From Herpetosiphon sp. NSE202 (lineage in GTDB: Bacteria > Chloroflexota > Chloroflexia > Chloroflexales > Herpetosiphonaceae): 64,000 nucleotides of DNA. Position 1 is the stretch's first letter; every line of letters begins with the position of its first letter. Below, in pieces: positions 6,749 to 53,334 of the stretch. The stretch lies in the NCBI RefSeq assembly GCF_042688385.1, contig NZ_JBHUPY010000007.1, positions 66,110 to 130,109 on the forward strand. Reading direction: 5' to 3'. The notes under the pieces are model-generated. The model was not told the DNA's origin. It searched no databases and saw only the letters and a program-made list of their open reading frames with translations. The position numbers and the translations under genes are program-made.

Positions 6749-6751
6749 ACA

Positions 6752-22892: not shown

Positions 22893-22901
22893 TCTGCACC
22901 C

Positions 22902-23642: not shown

Positions 23643-23674
23643 TCCCCGCATAGCAAATGCCTCACCCATGTACA

Positions 23675-24607: not shown

Positions 24608-24614
24608 TGGGTAT

Positions 24615-24965: not shown

Positions 24966-24966
24966 T

Positions 24967-25953: not shown

Positions 25954-26014
25954 TGCAAAACACTCCCGTGGTGAAGCCGTTTCATGCTGCACTGCACAAT
26001 AAACCGCCTAAAAT

Positions 26015-30902: not shown

Positions 30903-31422
30903 TAGCTATTTTGCTGAACTTGAACATGAATTAGCAGCGCTCAGTGTGGCCGAACGTGAAGCCATTCTGCGCGAGCTTCGTTCGCACTACGACGATGCCG
31001 CTGCCGATCCCACTGCTGATGATCAGACATTACGCTTAGGTTTGCCGTTTCAGGCCGATCAAATTGGGCGTAAGCTCAAGCGCATTCATCGCTCGGCGAA
31101 ACGCGAGGCGATTAAACATCGCACGATGATGATCGTCGCAACCGTGATTGCCAGCATTGCAATTGTGCTCTCGTTTATCTTTCCATGGATCGATGGCAAT
31201 CTTTTGGCCTTCATCCTTGGCGGCACAGCCGTGGTCTGCTCAATTCTCTCAGTTGTCGGAATTTGGCTGCCAAAACAAACGGTCGGCCAATGGCTCTTTT
31301 GGAGTGGTAGCACCGGCCTGACATTAATCGGCCTACCATCGGTGATTAGTTTCAGCAGTTTCTATCTGATCTTCGGCCCTTTGTTGTTGTGGACAGGAAC
31401 CCGACTACAACGGACGTATTAA
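30859..31422 (+). CDS. DUF1700-like membrane protein, the usual PadR partner
   Basis: It overlaps the PadR stop. The N-terminus is YFAELEHELAALSVAEREAILRELRSHY, followed by 4 TM segments. Confidence 0.55.
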   Translation: MPQFQRWSPMHRPNDSYFAELEHELAALSVAEREAILRELRSHYDDAAADPTADDQTLRLGLPFQADQIGRKLKRIHRSAKREAIKHRTMMIVATVIASIAIVLSFIFPWIDGNLLAFILGGTAVVCSILSVVGIWLPKQTVGQWLFWSGSTGLTLIGLPSVISFSSFYLIFGPLLLWTGTRLQRTY

Positions 31423-31429
31423 GCCGCTA

Positions 31430-32605: not shown

Positions 32606-32971
32606 TTAAGAATTCGAGATTGATGATTGTTGGGTGTTGGTGTAGGCTGCCAAATCTTGTTCTTCAATTACTGGCATAAAGCGCGTCATCTCGACCATCT
32701 TGAAGATTTTTTGATGATGGGGGCTGACATGGAGACAAAAGACTTTATAGCCATTCTTGCGCGCAGCCACCACAAACTTCAGCAGCACCGAAATGCCAGC
32801 CGAGTTGATAAAGGCCACATCGGCAAAATCTAAAACCGTAATTGGTTTCATTTGAGTACAAGCATGCTCGATCGCTGCCGCCGAAACGGCATCGACGCTG
32901 TTGGTCAAAATATGCAACAGCACGACATCATCCCACTCTTCTCGGCGAATTACCGATTGTACGTCGCTCAT
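32606..32971 (-). CDS. STAS-domain anti-sigma-factor antagonist (RsbV/SpoIIAA-like)
   Basis: ITVLDFADVAFINSAGISVLLKFVVAARKNG places the phosphorylatable Ser in the canonical D(F/L)xxVxFIdSaG context. The start MSDVQS is at 32971. Confidence 0.75.
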   Translation of the reverse strand: MSDVQSVIRREEWDDVVLLHILTNSVDAVSAAAIEHACTQMKPITVLDFADVAFINSAGISVLLKFVVAARKNGYKVFCLHVSPHHQKIFKMVEMTRFMPVIEEQDLAAYTNTQQSSISNS

Positions 32972-33099
32972 AATAGATCTCCTAGGTTGGTCAACGCGGC
33001 CAACTCTGCCTTGATCATAGTTGAGCAAGCGATTTTTGGCAACCAAGCTGCATGAAATTTTGATGACAGATCTTATAGAACAGAGAGCAAAGAACATAG

Positions 33100-33477
33100 A
33101 ACATAGGATTGAGATTAGGGTTCAGGGGCGAGGGGCCGGGGATCAGGGGCAAGGTTTAACGCAGAGGCGCAAAGGGACGATGGTTATGGGCTGTGTGTAC
33201 TGATTCATTGCGTTAACAACGATTCCCCCTCACCCCCTAGCCCCCTCTACCGCCCGCGAGCGAGGGGGAAACGCTGAATCAGTGCTCCCCTCGCCCGCGT
33301 TCAGTGGGAGAGGGGCTGGGGGTGAGGGCATGCACCTGGTTGCCAACCCAATGAGCTAGTACAGCTAGGGGCTATCGGTGATTCATTAGAACTATCGACA
33401 ATTGTTCCGCTAGCCCCTAGACCCCAATCCCTGAACGCTAGCCCCGACCCCTGATCCCCAGCCCCCGCCCCCACTCA
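33100..33477. repeat. Repeat-filled spacer containing one complete MITE-like element
   Basis: The element spans about 33190-33370. Its arms are CCCCTCACCCCCTAGCCCCCTCTACCGCCCGCGAGCGAGGGGG and, inverted, CCCCTCGCCCGCGTTCAGTGGGAGAGGGGCTGGGGGTGAGGG. Its tail is GGTTGCCAACCCAATGAGCTAGTACAGCTAGG. It is flanked by GGGGATCAGGGG-type and GAACATAGAACATAG motifs. Confidence 0.8.
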
Positions 33478-33897
33478 CTACTTCGCTTTGAAAATTCGCA
33501 GCCGCAAACTGGTGCCAGTGCCAGAGCTTTGCACCTCGTATTGATCGACCAACTCGCTAATCAGATACGAGCCAAAACCACGCAGCATGCCCGATTCAAG
33601 ATTATCTTCCTCGACCACGCGGCGCTCGGTGTTGAAGTGCTCGATGCCTTTGCCATGATCGATAATTTCAACTTCTAATTGATCGGCGTGCAACGAGAAA
33701 ATAACTTCGACCGAGCCAGCCACGCCGCCACCACCGCCATGCTCAATCGCGTTGGTGACGGCTTCGCTCACCGCCAGCTTGAGATCTTCGACGCGCTCGC
33801 GCGGAAAGCCCATGGTGCTGCCAAGCTCGGCAGCGCTGGCCCGCACAACCCGCTCAAAAACCAGGTCAGATGGAATGTTGAGGTGAATCCGATTCAT
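33478..33897 (-). CDS. Anti-sigma regulatory factor, a Ser-protein kinase (RsbW/SpoIIAB-like HATPase_c)
   Basis: AVSEAVTNAIEHGGGGG is the N-box/G-box of GHKL kinases. It is 139 aa. Confidence 0.75.
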   Translation of the reverse strand: MNRIHLNIPSDLVFERVVRASAAELGSTMGFPRERVEDLKLAVSEAVTNAIEHGGGGGVAGSVEVIFSLHADQLEVEIIDHGKGIEHFNTERRVVEEDNLESGMLRGFGSYLISELVDQYEVQSSGTGTSLRLRIFKAK

Positions 33898-35450
33898 CGT
33901 GAACCTCCACGGGCCATTGCGCGGCCCTTTTGGGGTAATTGTTCCTGTTGATTGATCAGATGTTCATAGCGGCGAAGGTAGGCTTTGCCCAAGGAGCTGT
34001 TGCCAACTTGCAGGTAACATGCCCCCAGATAATAGAGTGCTTGGGTATGGCGTGGGTTACGCCGCAGCACTTTTTCAAATAACGGGATGGCTTGGGCTGG
34101 CTCGAGCATTTCTTTATAGCACGTGCCCAGCATAAAGGTGGTTTCAATATCATCGGGCCAGTGCATCAGCACATGGCTAAATTCACGTGATGCCAAATCG
34201 TAGCGTCGCCGCCGCGTGTACATATAGCCCAAATCGTAGCGCAATGAATGGGCATGCGGTGCTAACTCCACCGCTTTGCGCCAAGCAGCCAAGGCCCAAC
34301 TTTCGTGGCCCAACACGGTATACATAAAGCCCAGCAAGTAGTAGGCGTTGGGATCTTTGGGCAAGAGCTGCACCGCACGTTCAAAAGCACGCATGGCGGC
34401 ATGATGTTTTTCTAAATCATAGAGCAGTTTGCCCATTTGCAAGAAAATTTGGCCATCGTTGGGGCGCAATTTGGCGGTGCTATACAAATGGTTGTAGGCC
34501 TCGCGATGCTTACCCTGAAAACGCAAAATCGCGCTGATGCGTAGCCGCGCATCAACATAATAGCGATCTTGCGGTGGAATTTGGCCATACTCTTGGAACG
34601 CCAATTCCCAGCGCCGCGCCCGCGCTAACAAATTACCAAGCAAATAGCGCGCCCGATGTTCGGTTGGCCGCCATTTGAGCAAGGCTTCGTAAATTCGCTT
34701 GGCATCTTCGTCGTAGCCTTGAGCTTTGAGGTCGTCGCTCAAACGGTAGTACCAGTTGGCAACCTCTTGCTCCGATTTGCTCACCAGCACTTCATCGGGG
34801 CCAACGCTGGGCGAGATAAAGGTTGGCTCAACCCGCAACGCCTCAGCAAAACAACGCTGAGCCAATTCGTGAGCACCATGGGCTTGGTGCATCAAACCCA
34901 TGTAATACAAAGGTTCGCCAGCGTAGGGCCGCAACTCGCGGGCCGAGGTAAAGTGAATATAGGCCCGTCCAGCGTCGTCGAGCATCTGATAGGCGCGACC
35001 AAGCGCAAAATGGGCCTCGTACAAGCCATTGTTATGCTCAAGCGCTTCCTTGAAAGCGCCAATTGCGCGATCAATTTGGCGCATCGCCCCAAAAGCCACG
35101 CCCAAGTTATAGTGCGCTTCGGCCAGTTGCGGATCGGTTTGTACCGATTCCAAATATTCGCGCTGGGCAGTTGGCCAATCATCTTGAAACGCGCAGGCAT
35201 TGCCAATATACAAATAAATAATCGCCCGCTCGCGATCATAAATTTGCGATTTCTCATCGCCCTCGACATAGGCCGCGATCAACGCGGTTTTGAAATGCTC
35301 GATTGCATCAGGATAATTGGCGGCCAAATAGGCTTTGATCCCGCGTCCAAACGCAGCACCCAAGCGCGTCCCAGCCATAAAACGCTCGCTCCCAGCAAAG
35401 GTATCGAGGTCCAGCGGCATTACATTGAGCGTGTCAACATTGGTAGTCAT
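33894..35450 (-). CDS. TPR-repeat protein
   Basis: At least 10 TPR-like 34-aa repeats are present (AxxYxxLGxxYxxxGxxxxAxxxYxxAL). The antisense 366-aa ORF at 34656..35756 is rejected. Confidence 0.7.
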   Translation of the reverse strand: MTTNVDTLNVMPLDLDTFAGSERFMAGTRLGAAFGRGIKAYLAANYPDAIEHFKTALIAAYVEGDEKSQIYDRERAIIYLYIGNACAFQDDWPTAQREYLESVQTDPQLAEAHYNLGVAFGAMRQIDRAIGAFKEALEHNNGLYEAHFALGRAYQMLDDAGRAYIHFTSARELRPYAGEPLYYMGLMHQAHGAHELAQRCFAEALRVEPTFISPSVGPDEVLVSKSEQEVANWYYRLSDDLKAQGYDEDAKRIYEALLKWRPTEHRARYLLGNLLARARRWELAFQEYGQIPPQDRYYVDARLRISAILRFQGKHREAYNHLYSTAKLRPNDGQIFLQMGKLLYDLEKHHAAMRAFERAVQLLPKDPNAYYLLGFMYTVLGHESWALAAWRKAVELAPHAHSLRYDLGYMYTRRRRYDLASREFSHVLMHWPDDIETTFMLGTCYKEMLEPAQAIPLFEKVLRRNPRHTQALYYLGACYLQVGNSSLGKAYLRRYEHLINQQEQLPQKGRAMARGGSR

Positions 35451-35460
35451 AACAGTTCCC

Positions 35461-36558
35461 TTAGGACGATCCTTTGGTGGATTGGAGCAAGCGATATTCT
35501 TCGATCACTGGGCGCAATTGCGCTTGAAGCTCGCGGGCAATTCCACGGCCAAATTGGCTGGCCACCATTTCATTCAACGGACGCAACAACTCTAGGCATT
35601 GGTCGGGCGTGCGGTTTGCGCCAACAAGGTCTAGGCTTTGCCACCATTCATCAGCAGTCATTGGCCCAACCACATCGGCCACAATGCTATGCATTTCATC
35701 AAGCAAATTGGCCAAACGCCGCCGCACGAGCACCATCGTCACATCATCGTGTTTGAGTTGGCCTTGGGTCCAAGCACGAACTTCGCTGAGCACGCGGGCC
35801 ATCAATGCCCGTGGCTTAAGGTGGCCAACTGTTTGTAAAAGGCTCTGAAAGCGTGGGTAGCCATATAAAACTTGATGCTCATTGGTCGCTTCAACAACCC
35901 CGTCAGTGTACAACATGACTGAATCGCCATAATTTAGTTGCAAGATGGATTCAGTATAGCAATCAATCTCCATCACGCCGAGCGGCACACCTGACGTTTC
36001 GATTTCAACAACTTGATTATTGATCACAATCAGATAATTGTGCCCAGCATTTGCCAATTGCATCATGCCAGTTTGCGGGTTGATTAATGCATAGAGCATC
36101 GTAACCATGCCCTGCGGCATTTCTTCGATCAAAATATTATTGACTGCGGCCAAGGTGTGGCCTGGCGATTGACCACGCCGCACTTCGGCCCGAAAAACCG
36201 TGCGCGCCACAGCCATGCGCAAAGCAGCAGGCAAGCCCTTGCCGCTCACATCGCCAATCATAATCCCTTGCGAGTCGTTGACCGCCAGAAAATCATAGAG
36301 GTCGCCGCCAAGCTCGCGGGCTGGCAACGAAACTGCGCTCAGCTCCCAGCCCGGCAGGCGCGGCACGGTTTCGAGCATCAGGCCTTGCTGCAAATCACGC
36401 GCCAATTGCAAATCTTGTTCCAACTCAGCTTGACGTTGGTCGGGCACTGGTGCTGCGGGCACTGGCGCAGGCAAAACAGGCTCAAGCGGAATCGCCACCC
36501 GACCATGAGCACGGTGACTGAGCAGTGAACTATAGATTGCTGGCTGTACTTTTTGCAT
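35461..36558 (-). CDS. PP2C-family phosphatase (SpoIIE/RsbU-like), soluble, with a Pro-rich N-terminus
   Basis: IMIGDVSGKGLPAALRMAVARTVF and VMLYTDGVVEATN. Confidence 0.75.
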   Translation of the reverse strand: MQKVQPAIYSSLLSHRAHGRVAIPLEPVLPAPVPAAPVPDQRQAELEQDLQLARDLQQGLMLETVPRLPGWELSAVSLPARELGGDLYDFLAVNDSQGIMIGDVSGKGLPAALRMAVARTVFRAEVRRGQSPGHTLAAVNNILIEEMPQGMVTMLYALINPQTGMMQLANAGHNYLIVINNQVVEIETSGVPLGVMEIDCYTESILQLNYGDSVMLYTDGVVEATNEHQVLYGYPRFQSLLQTVGHLKPRALMARVLSEVRAWTQGQLKHDDVTMVLVRRRLANLLDEMHSIVADVVGPMTADEWWQSLDLVGANRTPDQCLELLRPLNEMVASQFGRGIARELQAQLRPVIEEYRLLQSTKGSS

Positions 36559-36562
36559 AAAA

Positions 36563-38020
36563 TTAAAATGTTCCTTGGCTGGCTTCTAAGCTGCCAATCC
36601 AGCGTTCGCAGGCTGAACGCAACCACCCGACCGCGATGCCGTCAATGACGGTGCTACTTGAATGTTGGGCCAACTTGCGTAACGCATGTTGATAATAGCG
36701 CAAGGCTGCGGTTTCCCGCCCTTGGTGGCGATAGCTTTCGGCCAAATGAAAGGCGATTGTTGGCGATTCGGGCACCAAATAGCTGGCACGCTCCAAATAA
36801 TTAATCGCTTTATCCCACGCACCTTGGTTGAGCTCGATCATGCCCAGCACCACATAGGCGGCATCTTGCAAGACATCAAGTTCTAAGGCGCGGCGGGCCT
36901 CGGCAGCAGCTTGCTCGTTTTGGCCAAGGTCGGCATGCAATTGCGCAGCCAAAGCCAAAATTGCTGGCTGGCGCTGATTGGGCGCAATACTAGCCAATAA
37001 GCTCAAACCGCGTCGCTGCTGGCCTTGTGCCCGCAAGGTACGGGCTTCAGCCAATAAACTCGCTACATCAGGCGCTTTCAGCACATCAACAGTAACGATG
37101 GGCCGCGTAATTGGCCGTGGTCGCGCTGGAGTTGGCTCGACTGGCTTATCGAGTGGCTTGGTAATGGGCCGTTCGATAGTCGGGCGTGGCTTGGGCTGAC
37201 CATCGCCTTTACGATAAATGAAAGCGCCAGCCACCTCGACCGTTTCAAAGCGATCAAAAATGCCCCACAGCGATTCAGAAAAGCCCAAGAGCAAATAGCC
37301 ACCAACCGCCAACGCCGCATAAATCCGTTCGATCAACTGGCGACATGTTTCGAGTTGAAAATAGATTGTGACGTTTTGGCAAAACACCACATCAAGCTGA
37401 TAGGCCCAATGCGGCAGTGCATCAAGCAAATTGTGCTGTTCGAATTGTACCAAGGATCGCGCTGCTTCGCTGACGCGCAGCGACCCGTTGGGCTGTTGCT
37501 CAAACCATTGTTTGTAGTCGGCTTGAACATTGGCCAACGAACGCCCACGATACTCGCCAGCAATCGCGCGCTCAAGCGGCACATGGCTTAAATCGGTGGC
37601 CCAAATCGAAATCGGGCGGCTTGGCGGATTACCCCATTGCTGCAAGGCAACCATGGCCATGCTATACGGCTCCTCGCCAGTTGAGCAGCCAGCGCTCCAG
37701 CAGCGCAGCGGACGCAACGGCGAACGAACACGCTGAAGTTCAGGAAAAATATGCTCGCGCAAGGCCCGAAAATGGGCTGGGTTACGAAAAAATTGAGTTT
37801 CGTGATTGGCCAAGCGCTCAGCCAACCATTGCAATTCGCTCGCATTGGTCGGGTCTTGAATGCGCAGCGTATAGGCCGCTGGGCTAATTTGCAATTGGCG
37901 ATAGCGTTCCTGAACAAACATGCGGCCTTGGCGCATGCGACTATCATCGAGATACAAGCCCGCTCGACGAGCGAGATAATCACGAATGATCGTCCATTGT
38001 TCAGTGCTTAACTCACTCAT
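36563..38020 (-). CDS. cheR: Chemotaxis protein methyltransferase CheR with a C-terminal TPR domain
   Basis: The SAM-dependent MTase core reads RCWSAGCSTGEEPYSMAM. C-terminal TPR repeats are present. Confidence 0.8.
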   Translation of the reverse strand: MSELSTEQWTIIRDYLARRAGLYLDDSRMRQGRMFVQERYRQLQISPAAYTLRIQDPTNASELQWLAERLANHETQFFRNPAHFRALREHIFPELQRVRSPLRPLRCWSAGCSTGEEPYSMAMVALQQWGNPPSRPISIWATDLSHVPLERAIAGEYRGRSLANVQADYKQWFEQQPNGSLRVSEAARSLVQFEQHNLLDALPHWAYQLDVVFCQNVTIYFQLETCRQLIERIYAALAVGGYLLLGFSESLWGIFDRFETVEVAGAFIYRKGDGQPKPRPTIERPITKPLDKPVEPTPARPRPITRPIVTVDVLKAPDVASLLAEARTLRAQGQQRRGLSLLASIAPNQRQPAILALAAQLHADLGQNEQAAAEARRALELDVLQDAAYVVLGMIELNQGAWDKAINYLERASYLVPESPTIAFHLAESYRHQGRETAALRYYQHALRKLAQHSSSTVIDGIAVGWLRSACERWIGSLEASQGTF

Positions 38021-39099
38021 CGACGTTCAGCTTCACTGAGCAGCGCCACCAACCGCGGCGCAATCGAATCGGCAGCCAAAAATTCCATCGCCGCCCCAAC
38101 TTCCTCGGCGGCTCGCGGCATGCCCCAAATCGCGCTGGTTGTGCGATCTTGGGCAATTGTGCGTGCGCCCGCTCGCCGTAAGGCCAACAACCCTTGTGCG
38201 CCGTCACGGCCCATGCCCGTTAACAGCACGCCAATCGTTTGCTTGGGCAAAACCTTAGCCGCTGATTGCATGGTTACGTCAACCGATGGATACAGTAAGT
38301 TATCTGGTTGCGATTCAAGATGCACCGTCCAGTTGCCATCGATACGCAAATGATGGGTATCAGGGGCAACATAGACATGGCCGTTTTTCAAACTGCCGCG
38401 ATGCTGCGCCAACTCCACCTTCAAGGGCGAATGATTGTCCAACCAGTCTACCATTGTACCAACAAATCCCTCAGCGATGTGCTGCACAATGATAATGCTT
38501 GCGGGGATGCTCGCAGGCAGGCTATGCAGGAGTTTGTATAACACACGTGGGCCACCCGTCGAAGCGCCAACGACAATCAGCCAGCGTTGGCTTGGCGGGC
38601 TAATTGAAGCCATCAATAAGGGAATATTGGTCTCAGTAGTTGGCGATTTGCGCCGTCGCCCGCGTAAATGGGTTACAACTTTGACCCGTGAAAGCACCTT
38701 GACTCGTTCCAATAGTCGCATTCGATTTGCTTCGCCTTGGGCAAGTGTCAAATCGTTGGGTTTTTCCCACACTTCCAACGCTCCGGCATTGAGCATCTGA
38801 AAGGTTAAATTGCGATCATGGCGGGTCAGCGATGAGGTAATCACCAAAATTGGGGTTGGATGATAGGCCATAATTTCTTCAGTGGCCTGCAAACCATCCA
38901 TCACTGGCATGCGCACATCCATCGTGATAATGTCTGGTTGCAAGGCTGCCGCCAATTGCACCGCCTCACGCCCATCACGGGCCTCGCCAACCACTTGAAT
39001 CGCCGAATCACTGGCTAAAATAGTGCTGATGACTCGGCGCGAAACCGCCGAATCATCGACAACTAAGACGCGAATTGGTGCAAGCGGCCCTGTCATCAT
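38017..39099 (-). CDS. cheB: Chemotaxis response regulator protein-glutamate methylesterase CheB
   Basis: The REC domain is IRVLVVDDSAVSRRVI...DVRMPVMDG. The methylesterase region is VVGASTGGPRVL ... IVQHIAEGF. Confidence 0.85.
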   Translation of the reverse strand: MMTGPLAPIRVLVVDDSAVSRRVISTILASDSAIQVVGEARDGREAVQLAAALQPDIITMDVRMPVMDGLQATEEIMAYHPTPILVITSSLTRHDRNLTFQMLNAGALEVWEKPNDLTLAQGEANRMRLLERVKVLSRVKVVTHLRGRRRKSPTTETNIPLLMASISPPSQRWLIVVGASTGGPRVLYKLLHSLPASIPASIIIVQHIAEGFVGTMVDWLDNHSPLKVELAQHRGSLKNGHVYVAPDTHHLRIDGNWTVHLESQPDNLLYPSVDVTMQSAAKVLPKQTIGVLLTGMGRDGAQGLLALRRAGARTIAQDRTTSAIWGMPRAAEEVGAAMEFLAADSIAPRLVALLSEAERR

Positions 39100-39458
39100 T
39101 ACATACCCAACAACAGTTTGACCCGATTGGGCAAATCGAGCAAATCAAGGTCTTTGTTAAGATAATCGTCGACTCCAGCTTCAAAGCCAGCCCGTTTATC
39201 ATCCATCGAGGTCAACATGATAATTGGCAATTCTTCAAATAAGGGATTGGCGCGCAACTGACGGCAAACCTCGTAGCCATCAATGCCAGGCATTTGCACA
39301 TCCAACACCACTAAATCAGGCGTGAGATCGCCGATTTTTTGCAGCGCTTCCTCGCCGCTATAGGCCAAATCGACGGCATAGCCATACATTTCGAGCCGCA
39401 TTTTGACAATATCGGTAACCAGTTTGCTATCGTCAACAACTAAGATTCGTTCACTCAT
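39099..39458 (-). CDS. cheY: CheY-like single-domain response regulator
   Basis: ILVVDDSKLV ... VVLDVQMPGIDG ... LTSMD ... GVDDYLNKD. Confidence 0.8.
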   Translation of the reverse strand: MSERILVVDDSKLVTDIVKMRLEMYGYAVDLAYSGEEALQKIGDLTPDLVVLDVQMPGIDGYEVCRQLRANPLFEELPIIMLTSMDDKRAGFEAGVDDYLNKDLDLLDLPNRVKLLLGM

Positions 39459-39508
39459 TGAAAAACTCCTCGCAGGGAAAGATTGGTAGTAATCAAGGCC
39501 AGGCTACT

Positions 39509-41815
39509 TTAGCGGCCAAGTAATTGATGAATCGTTTCGAGCAAGTTGCTTTGATCAAACTGGCTTTTGACGATATAAGCTTGTGCGCCAGCCAATAAGC
39601 CTTCACGCCGATCGCTATCACGGGCTAGGCTTGTGATAATAATAATTGGCAGTTGGCGCAAACGTTCATGGCCACGCACCCGACGGGTCAACTCAAAGCC
39701 AGTCAGCAACGGCATTTCAACATCGCTTACCAGCAGATCGTAGGAATTGAGGTTGAGCTTGTCAAGCGCATCTTGGCCGTTAATGGCGGTTTCGACGATG
39801 TAGCCCGCCGATTGTAGCATCGAGCGTAGTAGCTCGCGGGTGGTAAACGAATCTTCGGCAACCAACAATTTGGCTGGCTGACGTTTGCTTGGCGCTGGCA
39901 AGGCCACTGGTTTGCCCCATTCGCGCGCTCGCGCCGCAATCGCCAATGGATTGAGCACCAGCACCAAACGCCCATCGGGTAAGGCAATTGCCCCAGTGCA
40001 CAAGCGCTGTTCGTTCAACAACGCTCCCAGCGATTTCACCACAACTTCGCGTTCATCAACCAATTTATCGACCAGCAAGGCCAAAGGCCGATTGGCCGGC
40101 CCCAAAACCACCAAATTGGAAATATCCGATGGTTGGGGCAACGGCCCACGCTGCTCAAGCAATGGTGCAAGCGCCACAATGCTCACGCTGCGCTCATCGA
40201 CGCGCACGCTTGGGCGGCCTTCGACCATTTGAATTTGTGCGCCCGAAACCCGCCGCCCACCCAAACAGGCGGTCGATGGCAAGGCATAGGTCGTTCCAGC
40301 CACATCAAACAACAGCACCCGCGTGGTCAGCAAGGTAATTGGCAAAATCAGGGTGAACGTCGTGCCTTGACCAAGCACTGAATGCACATCAACCCGTCCG
40401 CCAACTTCGCTCACAGCGGCGCGCACCACATCCATGCCCACGCCACGGCCAGAAACATCGGTGATGATTGCGCTGGTGGAAAAACCAGGCTGCCAGATTA
40501 ACTCCAAAGCTTCTTCATCGCGCAACCGCGCCGCCGATTCAGCATCGATAATGCCGCGTTTAATTGCTGTCGCCCGAATCACCGCCGGATCAATGCCACG
40601 GCCATCGTCGCTGATGATAATTTCAATCGTGCCGCCCAACGAGCGGGCTTGCAAGCGCAAGGTGGCCTCAGCAGGCTTGTTGGTTTTAATCCGATCTTCG
40701 GGCGTTTCAACCCCATGATCAAGCGCGTTGCGCACCAAATGCAGCAACGGATCAGCCATCAACTCAATCACTTTGCGGTCGGCCTCGGTGGTTTCGCCTT
40801 CGGTGATTAAGTTAACTTCTTTGCCCAACGAGCGTGCCAATTCGCGCACTGCTCGAGGAATTGGCGCAAACAAACCAGCGACTGGCTGCAAGCGCGTTGC
40901 CATCACCTCGGCCTCAAGTTCATCGACCAAGGCTTCACTGGCGGCGCTATGGCTGCTCCAACGCTCGCTGAGCAAGCGCAATTGGTTGCGGGTCGATTGC
41001 GCCAGATTTTGCAATTGGCTGGCGAGTTCGCTGGCTTCACGCCGTTGCTGAAAGGTCACGCGCTGGCCAGTTAAGCGCTCGCTTAGTTGTTGGCTCAGGC
41101 GCTCGCTTTTGCTCAGCAATTTATCCAAGGCTTCGAGATCGGCCACATGCTCAAGGTGCAATTGGCGGGTAACGACCAACTCACCAGCCGTATTCAACAA
41201 GCGATCTAAGCGTGCAATCGGTACACGCACTGTCGAACGCGTGGTGTTGATTAGCTTTGGAGCTTCGCCCGTAGGCCTAGCTTTTTTCGGGGCTGGGCGC
41301 GCGACAACTGGGGCTGGCTCAGGATTGGGTTGCTCAAGCACAACTGGCACTGGCTCGGGTTCTGGTTCAGCCAAAGGCTCAACAATCGGCGCTAGCTTTT
41401 TGGCTGGCGGCGCAGTTGGCAGGCTTTCGCCAGCTGCCAAGGCATTCAGTTGCTCGACCAACATATCGACATTGGGATCGGTCGGCGGCGGCTCGTTGAC
41501 GTTGGCGTTCAAGGCCAACAGCACATCAGCGCTAGCCAGCAGCACATCGTTAATGCTTGCATTCATGGCCAGCATGCCACTGCGCAAAGCCGAAAGCAAG
41601 CTTTCCATCGAATGCGCTAAACGCCCCATATCGATTTGGCCAAGCATGCGGGCTGAGCCTTTGATCGTATGCGCAGCCCGAAAAATCGTATCAATCGCTT
41701 CGCGATCGCCTGGGTTTGACTCCAAGGCCAACAAGCCTGTGGTCAAGGCCCGCACATTCTCTTCAGTTTCTTCGCGAAACTGGCCAAAAAATGCTGATAA
41801 ATCAAAACCGCCCAT
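39509..41815 (-). CDS. cheA: CheA histidine kinase with a fused C-terminal receiver domain
   Basis: The Hpt region is FRAAHTIKGSARMLG. The HATPase region is DDGRGID...SGRGVGMD. A CheW-like domain and a C-terminal REC (LLVAEDSFTTR...DVEMPLLTG) follow. The antisense ORF at 41109..41822 is rejected. Confidence 0.85.
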   Translation of the reverse strand: MGGFDLSAFFGQFREETEENVRALTTGLLALESNPGDREAIDTIFRAAHTIKGSARMLGQIDMGRLAHSMESLLSALRSGMLAMNASINDVLLASADVLLALNANVNEPPPTDPNVDMLVEQLNALAAGESLPTAPPAKKLAPIVEPLAEPEPEPVPVVLEQPNPEPAPVVARPAPKKARPTGEAPKLINTTRSTVRVPIARLDRLLNTAGELVVTRQLHLEHVADLEALDKLLSKSERLSQQLSERLTGQRVTFQQRREASELASQLQNLAQSTRNQLRLLSERWSSHSAASEALVDELEAEVMATRLQPVAGLFAPIPRAVRELARSLGKEVNLITEGETTEADRKVIELMADPLLHLVRNALDHGVETPEDRIKTNKPAEATLRLQARSLGGTIEIIISDDGRGIDPAVIRATAIKRGIIDAESAARLRDEEALELIWQPGFSTSAIITDVSGRGVGMDVVRAAVSEVGGRVDVHSVLGQGTTFTLILPITLLTTRVLLFDVAGTTYALPSTACLGGRRVSGAQIQMVEGRPSVRVDERSVSIVALAPLLEQRGPLPQPSDISNLVVLGPANRPLALLVDKLVDEREVVVKSLGALLNEQRLCTGAIALPDGRLVLVLNPLAIAARAREWGKPVALPAPSKRQPAKLLVAEDSFTTRELLRSMLQSAGYIVETAINGQDALDKLNLNSYDLLVSDVEMPLLTGFELTRRVRGHERLRQLPIIIITSLARDSDRREGLLAGAQAYIVKSQFDQSNLLETIHQLLGR

Positions 41816-41830
41816 GCGATAGCTCCTCGC

Positions 41831-43417
41831 TTAGCGTGTATTGGCCTCGATGTTGACCAACGAATGCAAACGGTTTGCAATCGCGGTGAGTTTGGATGCT
41901 GCATCGGCAGTTTGGCGCGAACCAGCCGCCGTTTGACGTGAGACTTCGGCAATTTCACGCATGGTTTCGACAACTTGCTCCGATGCAGTTTGTTGCTGAG
42001 CAGTCGCTAGGCTAATTTCTTGGGCCAATTGGGCGGTATGTTCGCCCAAAACCACAATCGAATCCATCTCTTGGCCTGCCCGATGCGCCAAGTTGACCCC
42101 TTGAACAACTTCTTTGACGCTTTCTTCTGTCGCCAGCACCGAGGCATTGGTCGCAGCCTGAATTTCGGCAATCACATCTTTGACTTCGCGCGAAGCGGCC
42201 AAGGTACGGTTAGCCAAGCTCTTGACTTCGGCGGCAACCACCGCAAAACGGCGACCATGCTCGCCAGCACCAGCAGCTTCAATCGCCGCATTCAAAGCCA
42301 ACAGGTGAGTTTCATCGGAAACATCGTCAATCAAGGCGATAATTTCGCTAATATGATGCGAACGTTCGCCCAAGCTCAAAACCCGCGATGAAACCTCTTG
42401 CACCCGTTGCTTAATCCGTTCCATGCCTTGAATCGCTTCATCAACCGATTGCTGGCCCATCGCCAACGAGGTCAAGGTTTGTTGAGCAGCAATGCTCACT
42501 TGATCCGAGGCGCTAGCGATTTGGCGCGCTGTAAAGCCCAATTCTTCAATCGTTGATGAAACTTCGGCAACTGCCGAAGCTTGTTCGGTTGCGCCCGAAG
42601 CTTGTTGCTGCGAGGCAGCCGACAATTCGGTAGCGGCAAACGAAAGATCGGTGCCAAGCTCAATCTGCTGAATATTTTTCTCGATCAATTGCTCGTTGGC
42701 CCGCATCAAATCGGCAGTCCATTGCTCGCTTTTGAGCGAATATTCGGCCAAAGCCTTGCTGAAAATCGTGGTTAGCACAATCGTTGTCGCCAAGCCCACA
42801 AAAAACAGCACAGCGCCAACGCCATACACACCTGCATCACCAGCGGTTAACGTGCCTTCAGAAACCCTGAATGAGCCAAGATTATCTTTGAGCAGCAGCA
42901 ACATGCCATAGGCAAAGGTGATCGAAATGCCATAGGCCACAATTTCGCGCCAAGTTGCTACCAAGCCAACGATAAACAGCATGACCAGCAACAACGAAAT
43001 GATCAGGCTTTGATCGATGCCGCCATAACGCACGGCACATGCTAAAGCTGCCAGCGAAATCGTGCCAATCAAAACATAGGTGGCAATTTGTTCTTGGCCT
43101 TGGCGAATCATACGCAAGCTAAAGAAGGCCACCAGCAAAATCGCGCCCATCGAAACAAACAGTACCCCGAGCGCATTCCACAATTGCGGATTATTGCGCT
43201 CGTAAATCCACGCTACCAAGGTGACTAACAAGGGCACGACCAAGGCAGCCAAGGCGACAATCCGCATAATCACGCGGCGGCGATCAGCTAAATTCGTAAA
43301 ATCGAGTGAGAAAAGCGAACCTAAATTCGCCATGAGCAGACTCCTTGGCACTGGTCTAGCGCTTTGCGTGTACCAGCACAAACAGTTCGAGATCAAGCAT
43401 GAGGCATGGGCATTCAT
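41831..43417 (-). CDS. Methyl-accepting chemotaxis protein with a polytopic membrane N-terminus
   Basis: The MCP signalling hairpin reads ETHLLALNAAIEAAGAGEHGRRFAVVAAEVKSLA. Roughly 6 TM segments come before it. The start could be 43334 or 43267. Confidence 0.8.
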   Translation of the reverse strand: MNAHASCLISNCLCWYTQSARPVPRSLLMANLGSLFSLDFTNLADRRRVIMRIVALAALVVPLLVTLVAWIYERNNPQLWNALGVLFVSMGAILLVAFFSLRMIRQGQEQIATYVLIGTISLAALACAVRYGGIDQSLIISLLLVMLFIVGLVATWREIVAYGISITFAYGMLLLLKDNLGSFRVSEGTLTAGDAGVYGVGAVLFFVGLATTIVLTTIFSKALAEYSLKSEQWTADLMRANEQLIEKNIQQIELGTDLSFAATELSAASQQQASGATEQASAVAEVSSTIEELGFTARQIASASDQVSIAAQQTLTSLAMGQQSVDEAIQGMERIKQRVQEVSSRVLSLGERSHHISEIIALIDDVSDETHLLALNAAIEAAGAGEHGRRFAVVAAEVKSLANRTLAASREVKDVIAEIQAATNASVLATEESVKEVVQGVNLAHRAGQEMDSIVVLGEHTAQLAQEISLATAQQQTASEQVVETMREIAEVSRQTAAGSRQTADAASKLTAIANRLHSLVNIEANTR

Positions 43418-43790
43418 CGAGCATAATAATGCCTAAAATGCTGGGGTCGAGCAAACTATCGGAAACTAAACTTGGCAATGGTTGCACGGTCAGTGCGGCC
43501 CGAATCGGGTCGCCCAATTGATCAACGACCACGGCCAAGCTTGCTTGTCCAGCCACAAATAAGGCTAAGCGATTGGTTTGTTCGCCAATTGGCTGTTGCA
43601 GCCACTGATTTAAATCGATCACGTCGATTGGGTTGCCGTGCTGAATCACACGGCGAATTGGCTGCCCGCTATTAGCAACATAATCCACACCTACCAAGGC
43701 GGTTTGGCGAATTAAGAGCGTTTGATCGCCAACACTCAGCGGATACAAATCGCTGACAACTGTTGGACTAACCATTGTTGATCGACCCAA
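43356..43790 (-). CDS. cheW: CheW-like coupling protein (copy 2)
   Basis: It has a CheW-fold length and pattern. The likely start MVSPTV is at 43775, 4 nt after the upstream cheW stop. Confidence 0.65.
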   Translation of the reverse strand: MGRSTMVSPTVVSDLYPLSVGDQTLLIRQTALVGVDYVANSGQPIRRVIQHGNPIDVIDLNQWLQQPIGEQTNRLALFVAGQASLAVVVDQLGDPIRAALTVQPLPSLVSDSLLDPSILGIIMLDECPCLMLDLELFVLVHAKR

Positions 43791-44274
43791 GCAGCGCAGC
43801 TAGATCAAGCCAAGTTGCAAAACCAAACGGCGTTGGCAGCAAGCCTCTGCTAGCAACCGTGCCGCGATGCGGCGTTGGCTCAGCCAAACTTAAGTCAAGC
43901 TGTAACATATCGAGCACTTGATCAACTGCAATTGCACAGTCAATCTGTTCGTGAACCAGCAAAAAGCGGCTGCGGCGGGTTGGCGTAATAGGCTTCATGC
44001 CCAAGATTACCCGCATATCAACCGCTGTCAGCAACACGCCACGCTGATTGATAATGCCCATAATCGCCGCCGCCGTGCCGGGAATTCTGGTTGGCGTGCG
44101 CCAACGCTCGATGCCACGGGCTTGCTCGACGGGCAAGGCAAAGCGTTCTTGATCGAGGATAAAAACCACAAATTGCGCCAATTGATCCGCAACTTGGCTC
44201 ACAGCAGGCTCTCCCCATGATTCAATGTTGGCAGCCTTGGCCACATGCCAAGCAACCAACGAGCAAATCATCAC
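43768..44274 (-). CDS. cheW: CheW coupling protein (copy 1)
   Basis: QFVVFILDQERFALPVEQARGIER ... IPGTAAAIMGIINQRGVLLTAVDMRVILG. Confidence 0.75.
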   Translation of the reverse strand: MMICSLVAWHVAKAANIESWGEPAVSQVADQLAQFVVFILDQERFALPVEQARGIERWRTPTRIPGTAAAIMGIINQRGVLLTAVDMRVILGMKPITPTRRSRFLLVHEQIDCAIAVDQVLDMLQLDLSLAEPTPHRGTVASRGLLPTPFGFATWLDLAALLGSINNG

Positions 44275-44279
44275 AAATG

Positions 44280-44840
44280 GCGCGTTCTAAAGCAGCAAAT
44301 CGTAGCTTAGCATAGTCGCAAGGTAGCCCAACTGTCAAGCGTACTAAACCAAGTAATTCAAGGATGAAGTATGAGGGATGAGGGCCTACAGAACATAGAG
44401 CATAGAACATAGAACATAGGATTTGGGGATCAGGGATCGGGGATTGGGCTATTGGCTATTGGCTAGCGGAAGATTATTCGTGGAATTCGTGGCTAAAAAC
44501 GTGTGGATATTGGCTTTTGGCGTTGAGGACATAATCTGTGGTCATCTGGCTCAATCTGTAGCTAAAATGCTCTTCGCGATCTTCGCGGCCTTTGTGGTTT
44601 CAAGCTTCTTGCTCTTTGTGCTCTTCGCGGTTCAATATTTAACGCAGAGGCGCAGAGAATGTTTGGCTTTTGGCTAGCAGAATTTTATAGTGTGAGACCT
44701 AATCCTTCGTTTTATAGCCCATGGCCTATCGCCTATAGGCTCATCCTTCGTGCCCTTCGCGTTCTTCGCGGTTCAATAATTAACGCAGAGGCGCAGAGAA
44801 TGTAGCGCTATTGGCTTTTGACTTTTGACTTCTGCCTTCT
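44280..44840. repeat. Roughly 560-bp mosaic repeat spacer inside the chemosensory array
   Basis: It carries GGATGAAGTATGAGGGATGAGGG, GAACATAGAGCATAGAACATAGAACATAGG, GGGGATCAGGGATCGGGGATTGGG, CTATTGGCTATTGGCTAGCGG, ATTCGTGGAATTCGTGG, CTCTTCGCG four times, TTCGCGGTTCAATA(T/A)TTAACGCAGAGGCGCAGAGAATGT twice, and TTTTGACTTTTGACTTCTGCC. Confidence 0.8.
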
Positions 44841-44841
44841 A

Positions 44842-45168
44842 TTACAACGTTTGTAATTGCGAGATCAAGTGTTGGCCAGTGATTGGCTTGGCAAGGCTTA
44901 GGCAGCCAGTTGTTCGCGGTTGAGGCAAATCAGTCAACAGAATATAATTTTGATGATCAGCCCAGTTCAGCATGGTGCTCTGTTCGTTCGAAATTGCTTC
45001 ATCAAGAATTACAAAGCGTGGTTGATATTGCTGGTTCAATTGTTCGGCCAGCAGCGAACTATCAGCTTCGTAGACTGTGTATCCTGCTCGACGAAGGTGA
45101 TAGCGCATGAGTGTTCGGGTAATTTGATCAGGATCGACGAGCAAAACAGTCATTGGCATACAAAGCAT
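44842..45168 (-). CDS. Stand-alone receiver-domain protein
   Basis: LLVDPD, the phospho-Asp in FVILDE, T in ILLTD and K in LAKPI are all present. The likely start is MPMTVLL. Confidence 0.55.
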   Translation of the reverse strand: MLCMPMTVLLVDPDQITRTLMRYHLRRAGYTVYEADSSLLAEQLNQQYQPRFVILDEAISNEQSTMLNWADHQNYILLTDLPQPRTTGCLSLAKPITGQHLISQLQTL

Positions 45169-45235
45169 CCTTATAGTGATGGATCAATTGGACAACCATC
45201 ACCATCACTATAAGTACACAAGTTTACGAGTCAGA

Positions 45236-45946
45236 TTACAAGCCCCGCCGCGGTTGGACATCAAAGACGTAGCCCACGCCACGCACGGTTTTGAGGTAGA
45301 TTGGCTTGGATGGGTTGTCCTCAAGTTTGGTGCGCAACGAGCGAATTCGCACCCACAACGATGATTGATCGCCTTCTTCGCCCAAGCCCCAGGCTTTGCG
45401 CAACAAGGTTGTGGTGGCCACGGCCACGGTTGGCGTTTGCAGCAATAAATACAACACCCGCAGCTCAATTGGCTCCAAGGGAATCGCTTCGCCCTTGCGC
45501 ATCAAAATATGTTGGCCGAAATTGACCGATAAATCTTCATCTATCACAATCAACTCGCCTGGATGCAAGCCACCCTCATACGATTTGGTCAGCAGTTTGT
45601 TGACCCGCGCCCGCAATTCTGGGTAGCGATAGGGCTTGGTCATATAATCATCGGCGTGTTGCTCTAGCCCGCGCACAGTCGTCGCTTCATCGGAAATCGA
45701 AGTCAGCATGATGATCGGAATTTCAACATAGCGGCGCAAACGATCAGAGAGTTCAAATCCGGTCATGCCAGGCATCATCAAATCGAGAATCGCCAAATCG
45801 GGCCATGAACTTTCGACCATCGCCAGCGCCGATTGGCCTGATTCTGCGGCCATCACTTCAAAGCCATCGTTGAGCAAATTGCTCACCAAGGTGCGCCGAA
45901 TAATCGTGTCATCATCAACCACCAGAATCCGCCATCGTGCTGGCAT
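45236..45946 (-). CDS. OmpR-family response regulator (REC plus winged-helix)
   Basis: RILVVDDDTIIRR ... LAILDLMMPGMTG in the REC domain. YLKTVRGVGYVF in the trans_reg_C domain. Confidence 0.8.
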   Translation of the reverse strand: MPARWRILVVDDDTIIRRTLVSNLLNDGFEVMAAESGQSALAMVESSWPDLAILDLMMPGMTGFELSDRLRRYVEIPIIMLTSISDEATTVRGLEQHADDYMTKPYRYPELRARVNKLLTKSYEGGLHPGELIVIDEDLSVNFGQHILMRKGEAIPLEPIELRVLYLLLQTPTVAVATTTLLRKAWGLGEEGDQSSLWVRIRSLRTKLEDNPSKPIYLKTVRGVGYVFDVQPRRGL

Positions 45947-45952
45947 TGGGTC

Positions 45953-47548
45953 CTACTCCTTCCAAGGTAGTTGCAGGGTAACGGTCGTCCCCTTGCCTAC
46001 TTGGCTATCAACGCTAATTGTGCCGCCATGAGCGCCAACTGCTAAATTACAGAAGGTCAAGCCCAGCCCTGTGCCGCGCGACTGTGCAGCAGTCCGGCCT
46101 TGGTAAAATTTATCGAAAATATGCGGAATATCTTCGGCGGCAATGCCCTGCCCAGTATCGCTAACCAGCAGCGTAATCAATTTGGCCGCTTGATCAATCG
46201 TGCCAACCACGCGAATTGTACCGCCTGGCTTGGTCCATTTGATACCATTGCTGACCAAATTGGCCAAAACACGTACCATTTTATGCTCATCAAGCACCAC
46301 CAATGGCGCAGCAGGCAGATTTAGCTCGAATGTTAGCTGTTGCTCAACCGTAATTGGCAGCACTTGCTCACTCAGCAATTCGCCAATTCGCTCAAGGCTG
46401 GTGGTTTCTTGGCTCAGCACCAAGCGCCCAGCTTCAGCTTTGTAGACATCAAGCAAATCGTCGATTAGGCGTTGTTGGGCTGCGCCTGCCCGAAAACCAA
46501 GCTCGACGAACAATTTGCCATCGTCATCAAGTTGGGTGGTCATCAAGGCATCGAAGCAGCCAACCATGCCCGCCAATGGCGCACGCAAGTCGTGAGTCAA
46601 CATCTGAATAAACCCATCGCGGCTATCTTCGGCCTCGCGCAGGCGAGTGTAAACCGCCGCATTGGTCAGGGCAACGCTCAATTGATCAGTCAGGGCTTTG
46701 ATCAAGGTTTCTAGCTCGGTCTTGAAGAAATTGCGCTGTGGATGCACCAAAATAAATACGCCGATAATCGTATTTTGAGCATAATTATGTAATGGCAAGG
46801 CCAGCGCTGAGCCAATTTCCTCGCGATCATCATAAAAATGTTTCCAGCGCGGATCGTTTTGGGCATCTTCGACAATTTGCACTTCGCCAGTGCGCAAGGC
46901 ATACGAGGCTAAGCCCTCGCGCAGCACCGCCTCAATAGCTTGCTCGGCCTCTGCTGGCGGCAAATGTGGCCGAAACAAAATGCGCCGCCAAACCCGATTT
47001 TGATCATCAAGCAGCAACACGCTGCCACGGCTGGCTCCCAGCAGTTCGTTAATTGCATTCAAGGCTTCGGGCAACACCTGATCAATATCCAACGAACGGT
47101 GCAAGGTTTGCGAAACCCGATACAGAAAGCGCAGGCGTTCTTGTTCGCGGTGCAAAGCGCGGCGGGTGTGCTTCAAGCGCAGCAGCACGCGCATGCGCGC
47201 CAGCAATTCATCGCGATTCACCGGCTTGGTCACGTAATCGTCTGCGCCAAGATCCAAGCCTGTAACCGTGTCGGCGGTGGTTTGCTTGGCCGAAACAAAA
47301 ATAATCGGGATGAAGGGCAGATGGTTACGCTCGCGAATTGCTTGCAGGGTTTGATAGCCATCCATTTCAGGCATCATTACGTCAAGCAAAATCAAATCGG
47401 GCACTTGTTGTTCGAGCATTTCCAAGGCTTCGAAGCCGCTGCGAGCACAGGCGGTTGCATAGCCAGCGCGTTCCAACATACGCTGTAACACCATCACATT
47501 GGTGGTTTGATCATCCACAATCAAAATTAGCTCGGGTGTTGCTTGCAT
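45953..47548 (-). CDS. Hybrid sensor with N-terminal REC, then GAF, HisKA and HATPase
   Basis: The REC domain is ILIVDDQTTNVMV ... LILLDVMMPEMDG. The HisKA H-box is LTHDLRAPLAGMVG. The HATPase region is DTGQGIAAED ... GTGLGLTFCNLAV. Confidence 0.8.
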   Translation of the reverse strand: MQATPELILIVDDQTTNVMVLQRMLERAGYATACARSGFEALEMLEQQVPDLILLDVMMPEMDGYQTLQAIRERNHLPFIPIIFVSAKQTTADTVTGLDLGADDYVTKPVNRDELLARMRVLLRLKHTRRALHREQERLRFLYRVSQTLHRSLDIDQVLPEALNAINELLGASRGSVLLLDDQNRVWRRILFRPHLPPAEAEQAIEAVLREGLASYALRTGEVQIVEDAQNDPRWKHFYDDREEIGSALALPLHNYAQNTIIGVFILVHPQRNFFKTELETLIKALTDQLSVALTNAAVYTRLREAEDSRDGFIQMLTHDLRAPLAGMVGCFDALMTTQLDDDGKLFVELGFRAGAAQQRLIDDLLDVYKAEAGRLVLSQETTSLERIGELLSEQVLPITVEQQLTFELNLPAAPLVVLDEHKMVRVLANLVSNGIKWTKPGGTIRVVGTIDQAAKLITLLVSDTGQGIAAEDIPHIFDKFYQGRTAAQSRGTGLGLTFCNLAVGAHGGTISVDSQVGKGTTVTLQLPWKE

Positions 47549-53312: not shown

Positions 53313-53334
53313 GCTCACCCAGAAGGAGATACCC

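Follow-up and report, generated by a model that had tools for sequence, protein, structure and literature searches.

A chemosensory gene cluster joined to a TPR-containing partner-switch module in Herpetosiphon and other Chloroflexia

Introduction

In several bacteria, genes of chemosensory (Che) pathways are found beside genes of serine-phosphorylation switches. Among gamma-proteobacteria, genes for a serine phosphatase and for one or two anti-sigma-factor antagonists are part of the ancestral F7 clusters in Vibrio, Pseudomonas, Shewanella and Methylomicrobium, which have an apparent role in stress (Ortega et al., 2020, PMC7184735). In the che1 locus of Shewanella oneidensis, the fusion protein CrsR (receiver-PP2C-kinase) and the STAS protein CrsA control RpoS (Fortier et al., 2022, PMC9855816; Bouillet et al., 2019, PMC6482189). 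That Che1 is linked to CrsR in Shewanella is still a hypothesis, and the same is true of the link between Che and switch in Vibrio. Here we describe a further pairing of this kind in a 64,000-nucleotide (nt) stretch of DNA from Herpetosiphon sp. NSE202 (Chloroflexota, Chloroflexia; RefSeq assembly GCF_042688385.1, contig NZ_JBHUPY010000007.1, positions 66,110 to 130,109 of the forward strand), hereafter the window, to which all coordinates refer unless another locus is named. On its minus strand a cluster of Che genes runs into the genes of a SpoIIE-type PP2C phosphatase, a tetratricopeptide repeat (TPR) protein, an RsbW-like kinase and a STAS protein. From gene order and domain content, this appears to be a split partner switch that contains a TPR protein and a PP2C without a receiver (REC) domain, placed on a Che pathway in the class for alternative cellular function (ACF) and conserved across the sampled Chloroflexia.

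Chloroflexi Che systems were all assigned to the ACF class by Wuichet and Zhulin, with CheR-TPR proteins and no flagella, as quoted in PMC3447774. A Frz-like core occurs in Chloroflexi (PMC4546325), and Herpetosiphon has one complete chemosensory system; for the Chloroflexia at hand, published surveys indicate a single Che system and no flagella. STAS proteins are also known from che operons. CheS is such a protein and binds CheA (PMC12654446); no cognate kinase or phosphatase is mentioned for it there. STAS proteins in a che context have been noted in Campylobacterota as well. The circuit, put forward as a candidate novel one in a preliminary description of the locus, is therefore not unprecedented, given that F7 clusters, CrsR/CrsA and CheS precede it. 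The idea of a Che-linked partner switch is not new; what is new is a PP2C that lacks a REC domain and ends in an orphan four-helix domain, together with the unusually conserved TPR protein. This version of the pairing appears to be undescribed, and we found no mention of a PP2C-TPR-kinase-STAS block in the literature searched. The outputs of ACF chemosensory pathways are little understood in general, and to have another case, far removed in phylogeny and fixed across the sampled members of a class, makes it more credible that Che arrays can feed serine-phosphorylation switches. Moreover, its steps should be easier to test biochemically, because the components are separate proteins rather than a fusion.

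Results and discussion

A block of eleven genes is conserved across the sampled Chloroflexia

Open reading frame (ORF) calls and a Pfam domain search of the window ORFs yielded 14 consecutive minus-strand ORFs, which span 47548 to 32606 (Table 1). The preliminary description had counted fifteen genes, although its own list holds 14; the single strand, the domains and the order that it gave agree with the ORF calls and with Pfam. We compared the 14 proteins, together with the ABC-F protein encoded upstream, with 80 fetched loci (numbered with the prefix L) by tblastn. At least 63 loci carry a full-length PP2C orthologue, and they belong to Herpetosiphonaceae, Roseiflexaceae, Chloroflexaceae, Oscillochloris, Kouleothrix, Viridilinea and further Chloroflexia; they are a sample and not a census, and the absence of a taxon from the set means nothing. 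The synteny counts that follow are limited to loci with enough flanking DNA.

The common order of genes is CheW, methyl-accepting chemotaxis protein (MCP), CheA, CheY, CheB, CheR, PP2C, TPR protein, kinase and STAS. The second CheW is too divergent for scoring, and the colinearity counts cover the ten genes from CheW to STAS. These ten genes are colinear in 38 of the 40 full-length loci, which come from Herpetosiphonaceae, Roseiflexaceae, Chloroflexaceae and Oscillochloris, and CheW opens the conserved block in 41 loci. At the junction of the two halves, a CheR match lies upstream of PP2C in 51 of 52 loci (46 of 52 under a 600-nt limit, with five matches ending further upstream), the locus with no CheR match being L012. 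The genes of the TPR protein, RsbW-like kinase and STAS protein lie downstream of PP2C in 55 of 57 loci. Outside Chloroflexia, in Acidobacteriota and others (L064-L080), the PP2C homologues match in the catalytic core alone and have no Che neighbours.

The flanks, on the other hand, vary. Upstream of the block we found a polysaccharide deacetylase, a short-chain dehydrogenase or, in Herpetosiphon, two-component genes; downstream there is gyrA, an EamA transporter or, in this window, a desaturase-like gene. Given that the flanks differ between families, only the block itself is kept together. Its persistence across families at 40-50% identity in the Che core argues strongly for functional dependence. 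Judging from this conserved order, the adjacency of the Che genes and the partner switch is not due to chance, and their functional coupling is strongly supported.

The unit so delimited consists of 11 genes, namely CheW, the weak CheW, MCP, CheA-REC, CheY, CheB, CheR-TPR, PP2C, TPR protein, RsbW-like kinase and STAS. It does not have 14 or 15, because the other families do not have the three upstream genes (REC-GAF kinase, OmpR-type regulator and REC108) at this place. They precede the Che block in L001 (Herpetosiphon) only. With their linkage confined to this genus, we rejected them as parts of the system, and they are probably a separate unit, contrary to the larger unit of the preliminary description. 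REC108 has kept the acidic pocket, the acceptor Asp, the Thr and the Lys-Pro of a receiver despite its weak Pfam score.

Conservation is uneven within the block. Median identities are 75% for CheY, the most conserved gene of the block, 72% for the TPR protein, 71% for STAS, 58% for RsbW and 52% for PP2C, and range from 38 to 54% for the other Che proteins (CheW, MCP, CheA, CheB and CheR; 46% for CheA). The slow evolution of CheY, the TPR protein and STAS would fit a shared output hub. High conservation of STAS would equally be expected if this protein contacted conserved Che components, and this brings in an alternative in which the partner switch acts on the Che array. The phosphorylation state of STAS would then modulate CheA, the dephosphorylation of CheY or the conformation of the receptor, and a separate cue, possibly sensed via the TPR protein, would set the phosphatase and the kinase. 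CheS of Sinorhizobium meliloti and Agrobacterium provides a model, since it is likewise a small, STAS-only protein encoded inside a che cluster, and in alpha-proteobacteria it binds CheA and alters the phosphate flow between CheY proteins. A STAS protein acting on a chemoreceptor has been proposed for Campylobacterota, and the lack of a recurrent target gene beside the cluster (see below) points in the same direction. Nonetheless, CheS acts by binding CheA, whereas here a cognate kinase, a phosphatase and a near-invariant phosphorylatable serine accompany STAS and are conserved with it. No such kinase or phosphatase is mentioned for CheS, and their presence here speaks for a phospho-switch over a CheS-type role. 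In addition, the kinase resembles RsbW and SpoIIAB, true anti-sigma kinases that hold a third partner sequestered, and the Che core evolves far faster than STAS. We therefore regard action of the switch on the array as distinctly unlikely.

Table 1. Genes and spacers of the Herpetosiphon sp. NSE202 locus, listed in the direction of transcription (aa, amino acids).
Feature	Coordinates	Strand	Evidence or remark
REC-GAF-HisKA-HATPase kinase	47548-45953	-	Pfam
OmpR-type regulator	45946-45236	-	Pfam
Small REC protein REC108, 108 aa	45168-44842	-	Weak Pfam score
Spacer upstream of first CheW	44275-44841		Repeat-filled
CheW coupling protein, 168-aa ORF, GTG start	44274-43768	-	Pfam CheW E=5.8e-21
Second, divergent CheW-like protein, 144-aa ORF	43790-43356	-	Pfam CheW sub-threshold, E=0.0011, 19 bits
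MCP	43417-41831	-	Pfam MCPsignal E=1.1e-36, residues 311-492
CheA-REC hybrid histidine kinase (Hpt, dimerisation, HATPase, CheW-like, REC)	41815-39509	-	Pfam
CheY, single-domain response regulator	39458-39099	-	Pfam Response_reg E=1.6e-27
CheB methylesterase with REC	39099-38017	-	Pfam CheB_methylest E=2.4e-57 and Response_reg
CheR-TPR methyltransferase	38020-36563	-	Pfam CheR E=9.9e-52; C-terminal TPR families, residues 353-453
SpoIIE-type PP2C (RsbU/SpoIIE), 365 aa	36558-35461	-	Pfam SpoIIE E=1.2e-45
TPR protein, 518 aa	35450-33894	-	Pfam TPR families
RsbW/SpoIIAB-type kinase, 139 aa	33897-33478	-	Pfam HATPase_c_2 E=8.1e-26
Spacer between kinase and STAS	33477-32972 (ORF-based: 33098-33477)		Repeat-rich, strain-variable, promoter-like site
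STAS protein	ORF 33097-32606; probable gene 32971-32606	-	Pfam STAS E=2.7e-07

The chemosensory half

The CheY active site is complete (D9/D10, D53, T83 and K102). The N-terminal half of the MCP is multi-pass, with several hydrophobic segments in the translation at about residues 50-220, and Pfam detected no periplasmic, PAS or HAMP domain in it; its probable start is M29 at 43333. Two cheW genes had been described, and the first is a CheW by its Pfam score, whereas the second remains below the threshold. The counterpart of this second gene is a CheW in L083 and a weak CheW in L081 and L082, and the ORF may start at an ATG at 43775. Neither cheD nor a REC-REC protein was found in the block by Pfam.

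The assignment to an ACF-type architecture, compared with Wsp and Frz in the preliminary description, stands as far as the general class is concerned: the CheR-TPR fusion, the hybrid CheA-REC and the lack of flagellar genes in the window are ACF-associated traits and agree with the published class. With Frz and Wsp the locus further shares two CheW-like proteins, CheB and a non-flagellated or surface-associated lifestyle. The features that define Frz, a cytoplasmic receptor of the FrzCD type and the dual-receiver protein FrzZ, are absent here. The outputs of the Frz system, to which FrzX belongs as a further receiver protein, act on polarity proteins, and the output of Wsp is the REC-GGDEF protein WspR. 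The Frz core is reported to be phylogenetically related to the Chloroflexi systems, and FrzZ is a receiver-protein output of Frz (PMC4546325); the FrzCD receptor is cytoplasmic (PMC9855816), whereas the MCP encoded here is a membrane protein. Neither Frz nor Wsp has a PP2C/kinase/STAS module or this TPR protein.

The partner-switch half

The PP2C motifs GGDLYDF, GDVSGKG, TDG and DD.T are invariant in 16 aligned orthologues. An AlphaFold2 model (predicted local distance difference test, pLDDT, 83) matches the folds of the Rv1364c RsbU domain, SiaA, RssB of Pseudomonas aeruginosa and SpoIIE. We ruled out a hidden receiver, since no REC match was obtained; residues 1-28 have a pLDDT below 50, and residues 39-60 form a linker helix that precedes the catalytic core. 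Two further elements stand out in this phosphatase. At the N-terminus, 48 of 60 orthologues carry a motif of the SLLSH type, [ST][LMI][LVIA]xH, after a basic stretch. At the C-terminus (residues 285-363, approximately) there is an orphan four-helix domain, which we found only in this PP2C family; given this confinement, it can be regarded as a system-specific regulatory addition. In five loci of deep-branching Chloroflexia (L057, L058, L060, L061 and L063) the N-terminus is hydrophobic and transmembrane-like instead of SLLSH-type, the PP2C N-termini in this group being located just upstream of position 10001 or 7286 of their loci. These termini hint that recruitment of the PP2C to the membrane or to the array matters.

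The gene of the TPR protein sits between those of PP2C and kinase. We retrieved 620 homologues of this protein; the best 120 of the 620 are all at least 68% identical to it, and the named ones among these 120 are nearly all from Chloroflexia, with one labelled Gracilibacteria. In 55 orthologues, 37% of the positions are at least 95% invariant, including LDLDTFxGSERF in the non-TPR N-terminal region. The kinase finds its best sequence match in the PDB in RsbW (6m36, E=3.6e-14), followed by SpoIIAB, and the conservation of its N, G1 and G2 boxes extends over 57 sequences. STAS is divergent overall, yet its FINSAGIS loop is near-invariant (at least 95%) in 57 sequences, and the serine of this loop aligns with the conserved SAG/SSG serine of SpoIIAA-type structures. 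By their motifs, PP2C, GHKL kinase and STAS are thus predicted to be competent. Of four features of an RsbU/RsbW/RsbV module that can be checked in sequence, three are present, and the fourth, a linked third partner, is lacking.

The comparison with described partner switches shows both where this module belongs and where it departs from them. With the RsbU-RsbV-RsbW/SigB and SpoIIE-SpoIIAA-SpoIIAB/SigF switches of Bacillus subtilis it shares a SpoIIE-type PP2C, a GHKL kinase and a STAS protein with a conserved serine; it differs in the order PP2C-TPR-kinase-STAS, in the lack of a sigma gene in the operon and in its sensor, which is a chemosensory array and not a stressosome. The regulatory helical domain of RsbU is N-terminal and binds RsbT, whereas the extra helical domain of our PP2C is C-terminal and unrelated to it in sequence. 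With the F7 clusters (stages 1 and 2) the locus has in common a proposed chemoreceptor input into a phospho-partner switch with no assigned flagellar control. The differences are more numerous. Receiver, PP2C and anti-sigma kinase are fused in F7/CrsR, and CrsR therefore has an obvious entry for phosphotransfer, whereas here the PP2C is REC-less and the kinase is a separate protein. The F7 clusters include cheD and Aer2-like PAS-HAMP receptors in place of a multi-pass membrane MCP, have no counterpart of the TPR protein or of the four-helix domain, and belong to another Che class and another phylum.

Spacers, repeats and promoter-like sites

Most genes of the locus overlap or lie within 50 nt of the next, as the preliminary description had stated, except that the OmpR-type regulator and REC108 are 67 nt apart. 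Packing is tight around the junction with the switch: CheR and PP2C are separated by 4 nt and PP2C and TPR protein by 10 nt, and the genes of TPR protein and RsbW-like kinase overlap by 4 nt. The STAS ORF is over-extended, since orthologues have 108-109 amino acids; STAS would begin at M43 (32971), and the 42 codons upstream (to 33097) are probably non-coding. With this start the gap between RsbW-like kinase and STAS amounts to about 506 nt. In other genera the median distance between the two is about 18 nt (measured between tblastn hits), and in L081 and L082 the two genes overlap by 4 nt.

The two spacers described as repeat-filled indeed contain nested repeats. Compared with Herpetosiphon giganteus DSM 589, whose locus encodes a 99% identical PP2C (found by a pattern scan of species-representative genomes), the window is colinear at about 96% DNA identity except in both spacers. 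In the spacer upstream of CheW, 189 nt correspond to 53 nt in DSM 589; this spacer holds a direct repeat of 76 nt along with several families of short repeats. The spacer between kinase and STAS has a divergent core of 344 nt, against 121 nt in DSM 589, and holds eight nested G/C-rich inverted repeats. An 18-nt motif, TCTGCGCCTCTGCGTTAA, occurs four times in the window against an expectation of 0.03, in the spacers and at 59113-59130. Because their lengths differ from those of the 96%-identical DSM 589 and because of their repeat content, the spacers are strain-variable intergenic repeat insertions and not ancestral features; the length differences suggest small mobile or rapidly turning-over repeat elements.

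Promoter-like sites are found in both spacers. The site TTGACA-18-TATGCT at 44338-44309 lies upstream of CheW, and the conserved block probably has its 5' boundary and its promoter region in this spacer. The site TTGCCA-17-TATGAT at 33042-33014 lies directly upstream of the probable STAS start. A scan for promoters and terminators between 32000 and 48000 returned 19 and 28 sites, respectively, against 12.6±3.9 and 22.8±4.7 in shuffled sequence; the counts are not clearly above expectation, and the scan neither establishes nor refutes an operon structure.

The large spacer and the promoter-like site before STAS in this strain would suit a view in which the Che pathway and the partner switch are co-inherited, perhaps co-expressed, and signal independently of each other, for example with both regulating surface motility or aggregation. 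The REC-less PP2C and the two loci in which the downstream half is missing (see below) fit this alternative too, and SpoIIE-type phosphatases are frequent in this genome, with a second one at 1575-2975 of the window. Yet colinearity in 38 of 40 loci, between flanks that are not conserved and over a divergence that spans the class, would be hard to maintain without dependency, and both the extra domain of the PP2C and the TPR protein are restricted to this context. Independent signalling is in our judgement very unlikely.

Direction of signalling

From the preserved association we favour, with slightly better than even confidence, a flow of signal from the Che pathway to the PP2C and from there to STAS. 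The membrane receptor array would control the transfer of phosphate from CheA-REC to CheY, with adaptation provided by CheB and CheR-TPR. In the absence of a receiver domain from the PP2C, protein contacts would have to pass the signal on, by which CheY~P or the receiver of CheA could alter the activity of the phosphatase. Candidates for such contacts are the TPR protein, as an adaptor, and two elements of the PP2C that would serve for docking, its four-helix domain and its SLLSH-type motif. The RsbW-like kinase would phosphorylate the serine of the FINSAGIS loop and the PP2C would remove the phosphate; unphosphorylated STAS would then bind the kinase and displace its other partner.

Several points weigh against this scheme. 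A PP2C without REC offers no obvious entry point for phosphotransfer, and no switch target is encoded nearby in any surveyed locus. Gene order does not tell which way the signal travels. When the preliminary description proposed that chemoreceptor input is routed into the switch, it was right about the association, Che and switch genes being one fixed unit across Chloroflexia; direction and target are what we infer, as are the parts that TPR protein, four-helix domain and N-terminal motif would play. In this strain STAS may be transcribed separately, since a repeat-filled spacer of about 500 nt and a promoter-like site part it from the kinase gene. Finally, L039 and L046 have no TPR-RsbW-STAS genes after the PP2C. 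In L039 the PP2C is followed by a 1373-amino-acid ORF on the same strand (2920-7041), and in L046 by genes on the opposite strand (11382-15697). These breaks could be real rearrangements or artefacts in the assembly of metagenome-assembled genomes.

The partner of the kinase

Another question regards the partner that STAS would displace from the kinase. As already noted in the preliminary description, the window holds no candidate: Pfam detected no sigma-factor, flagellar or pilus domain in the scanned window ORFs of at least 150 amino acids (about 50 further plausible ORFs). A sigma factor as target, one of the two options proposed there, is an assumption, and in a clustering of flanking ORFs over at least 63 loci no sigma factor or other switch target recurred beside at least 55 orthologous clusters. 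A sigma factor encoded elsewhere in the genome is a possibility to which we give somewhat less than an even chance.

A sub-case of this is a classical RsbU-RsbV-RsbW/SigB switch, in which the kinase would hold a sigma factor encoded elsewhere, the Che pathway would be the sensor and the output would be a stress or developmental response at the level of transcription, not of motility. The best solved relatives of the kinase are RsbW and SpoIIAB, the phosphatase core matches RsbU-type enzymes, and RpoS, which CrsR/CrsA of the Shewanella che locus controls, is likewise encoded elsewhere. The canonical rsbV-rsbW-sigB and spoIIA operons co-encode their own sigma factor, however, unlike this block, and no such gene is present in the window or recurrent beside the surveyed clusters. 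The classical model also leaves the conserved TPR protein unexplained, and several partner switches, such as HsbA-HsbD/FlgM and SiaC-SiaD, have outputs other than a sigma factor. We consider a classical switch rather unlikely.

Since the block comes with a sigma gene in no lineage and the TPR protein has no place in the classical model, we judge a non-sigma partner to be no less likely than a sigma factor. Such a partner, for example the TPR protein or a component of motility or adhesion, comes in our estimate just short of an even chance. HptB-HsbR-HsbA and SiaABCD of P. aeruginosa are comparable here, since their STAS proteins have non-sigma partners (FlgM, HsbD and SiaD) and are involved in the choice between motile and sessile life. 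Switches of the HsbA/SiaC type can thus show what a non-sigma output might look like, and likewise the HD-GYP branch of the Chloroflexales loci described below. The inputs differ: in place of a Che array there is a phosphorelay to a REC-PP2C-kinase fusion (HsbR) or a membrane PP2C (SiaA), and no TPR protein takes part.

The only recurrent neighbours of the block, in the at least 63 loci, are a 137-amino-acid REC protein (REC137) and a REC-GAF-HD-GYP regulator. REC137 follows the block in 31 Chloroflexales loci (61-80% identity), and REC-GAF-HD-GYP in 25 (47-71% identity), with the motif HHERxDGxGYP. Both are found directly after STAS in Roseiflexaceae, Chloroflexaceae and Oscillochloris (for example at 13756-15799 of L081), and neither lies beside the Herpetosiphon cluster. 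A parallel branch of the pathway through these two proteins is likely in Chloroflexales, and it is possible that this is a cyclic di-GMP branch.

In a more far-reaching version, the pathway would use no receiver-domain effector and its output would be non-transcriptional altogether: CheY~P would be read by the lineage-specific TPR scaffold and the REC-less PP2C, which would turn the histidine-aspartate signal into serine phosphorylation of STAS, and STAS or the TPR protein would bind the motility machinery and control gliding, adhesion or the aggregation of filaments, with no sigma factor released. We hold this to be unlikely. If true, it would be a previously undescribed route of Che signalling and would offer a first approach to steering in Chloroflexia, and the interest of the locus rises if the output is such a non-transcriptional control of gliding or aggregation. 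CheY, the TPR protein, STAS and, in Chloroflexales, the HD-GYP regulator are candidates for the control of behaviour in gliding, filamentous Chloroflexia, to which both the predator Herpetosiphon and the phototrophs Chloroflexus and Roseiflexus, builders of mats, belong.

Other genes in the window

Convergent with STAS, at 30859-32509 on the plus strand, lie the genes of a HAAS-domain protein and of a 359-amino-acid protein with a weak likeness to diiron fatty-acid desaturases; they are not linked to the cluster outside Herpetosiphon. The desaturase-like gene (31430-32509) was considered as a parallel to Che7/Des7 of Myxococcus. We rejected this parallel in view of the weak Pfam match, the location of the gene on the opposite strand and the lack of conserved linkage.

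At the other end, an ABC-F ATPase (626 amino acids, 47573-49453) and a zinc-ribbon/Ser/Thr protein kinase/FGE-sulfatase fusion (861 amino acids, 49474-52059) are encoded on the minus strand, the same strand as the REC-GAF kinase. With gaps of 20-24 nt to the genes of these two proteins, the run of same-strand genes extends beyond the start given in the preliminary description. Just beyond the FGE-fusion gene there is a NarL-type pair on the plus strand, consisting of a HisKA_3 kinase and a REC-GerE regulator (52299-54048).

Further away, the second SpoIIE-type PP2C mentioned above (466 amino acids, 1575-2975, minus strand) is unrelated to that of the block and has a long N-terminal region without Pfam match. 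A cluster for fatty-acid synthesis occupies 19961-25992 on the minus strand, with a FabH-like gene, an acyltransferase gene (FabD-like), three successive short-chain dehydrogenase/reductase genes and a biotin carboxylase. Finally, a 323-amino-acid protein with two copper domains of the cupredoxin/plastocyanin type (12761-13732, minus strand) is reminiscent of the auracyanin-type blue copper proteins of Chloroflexi.

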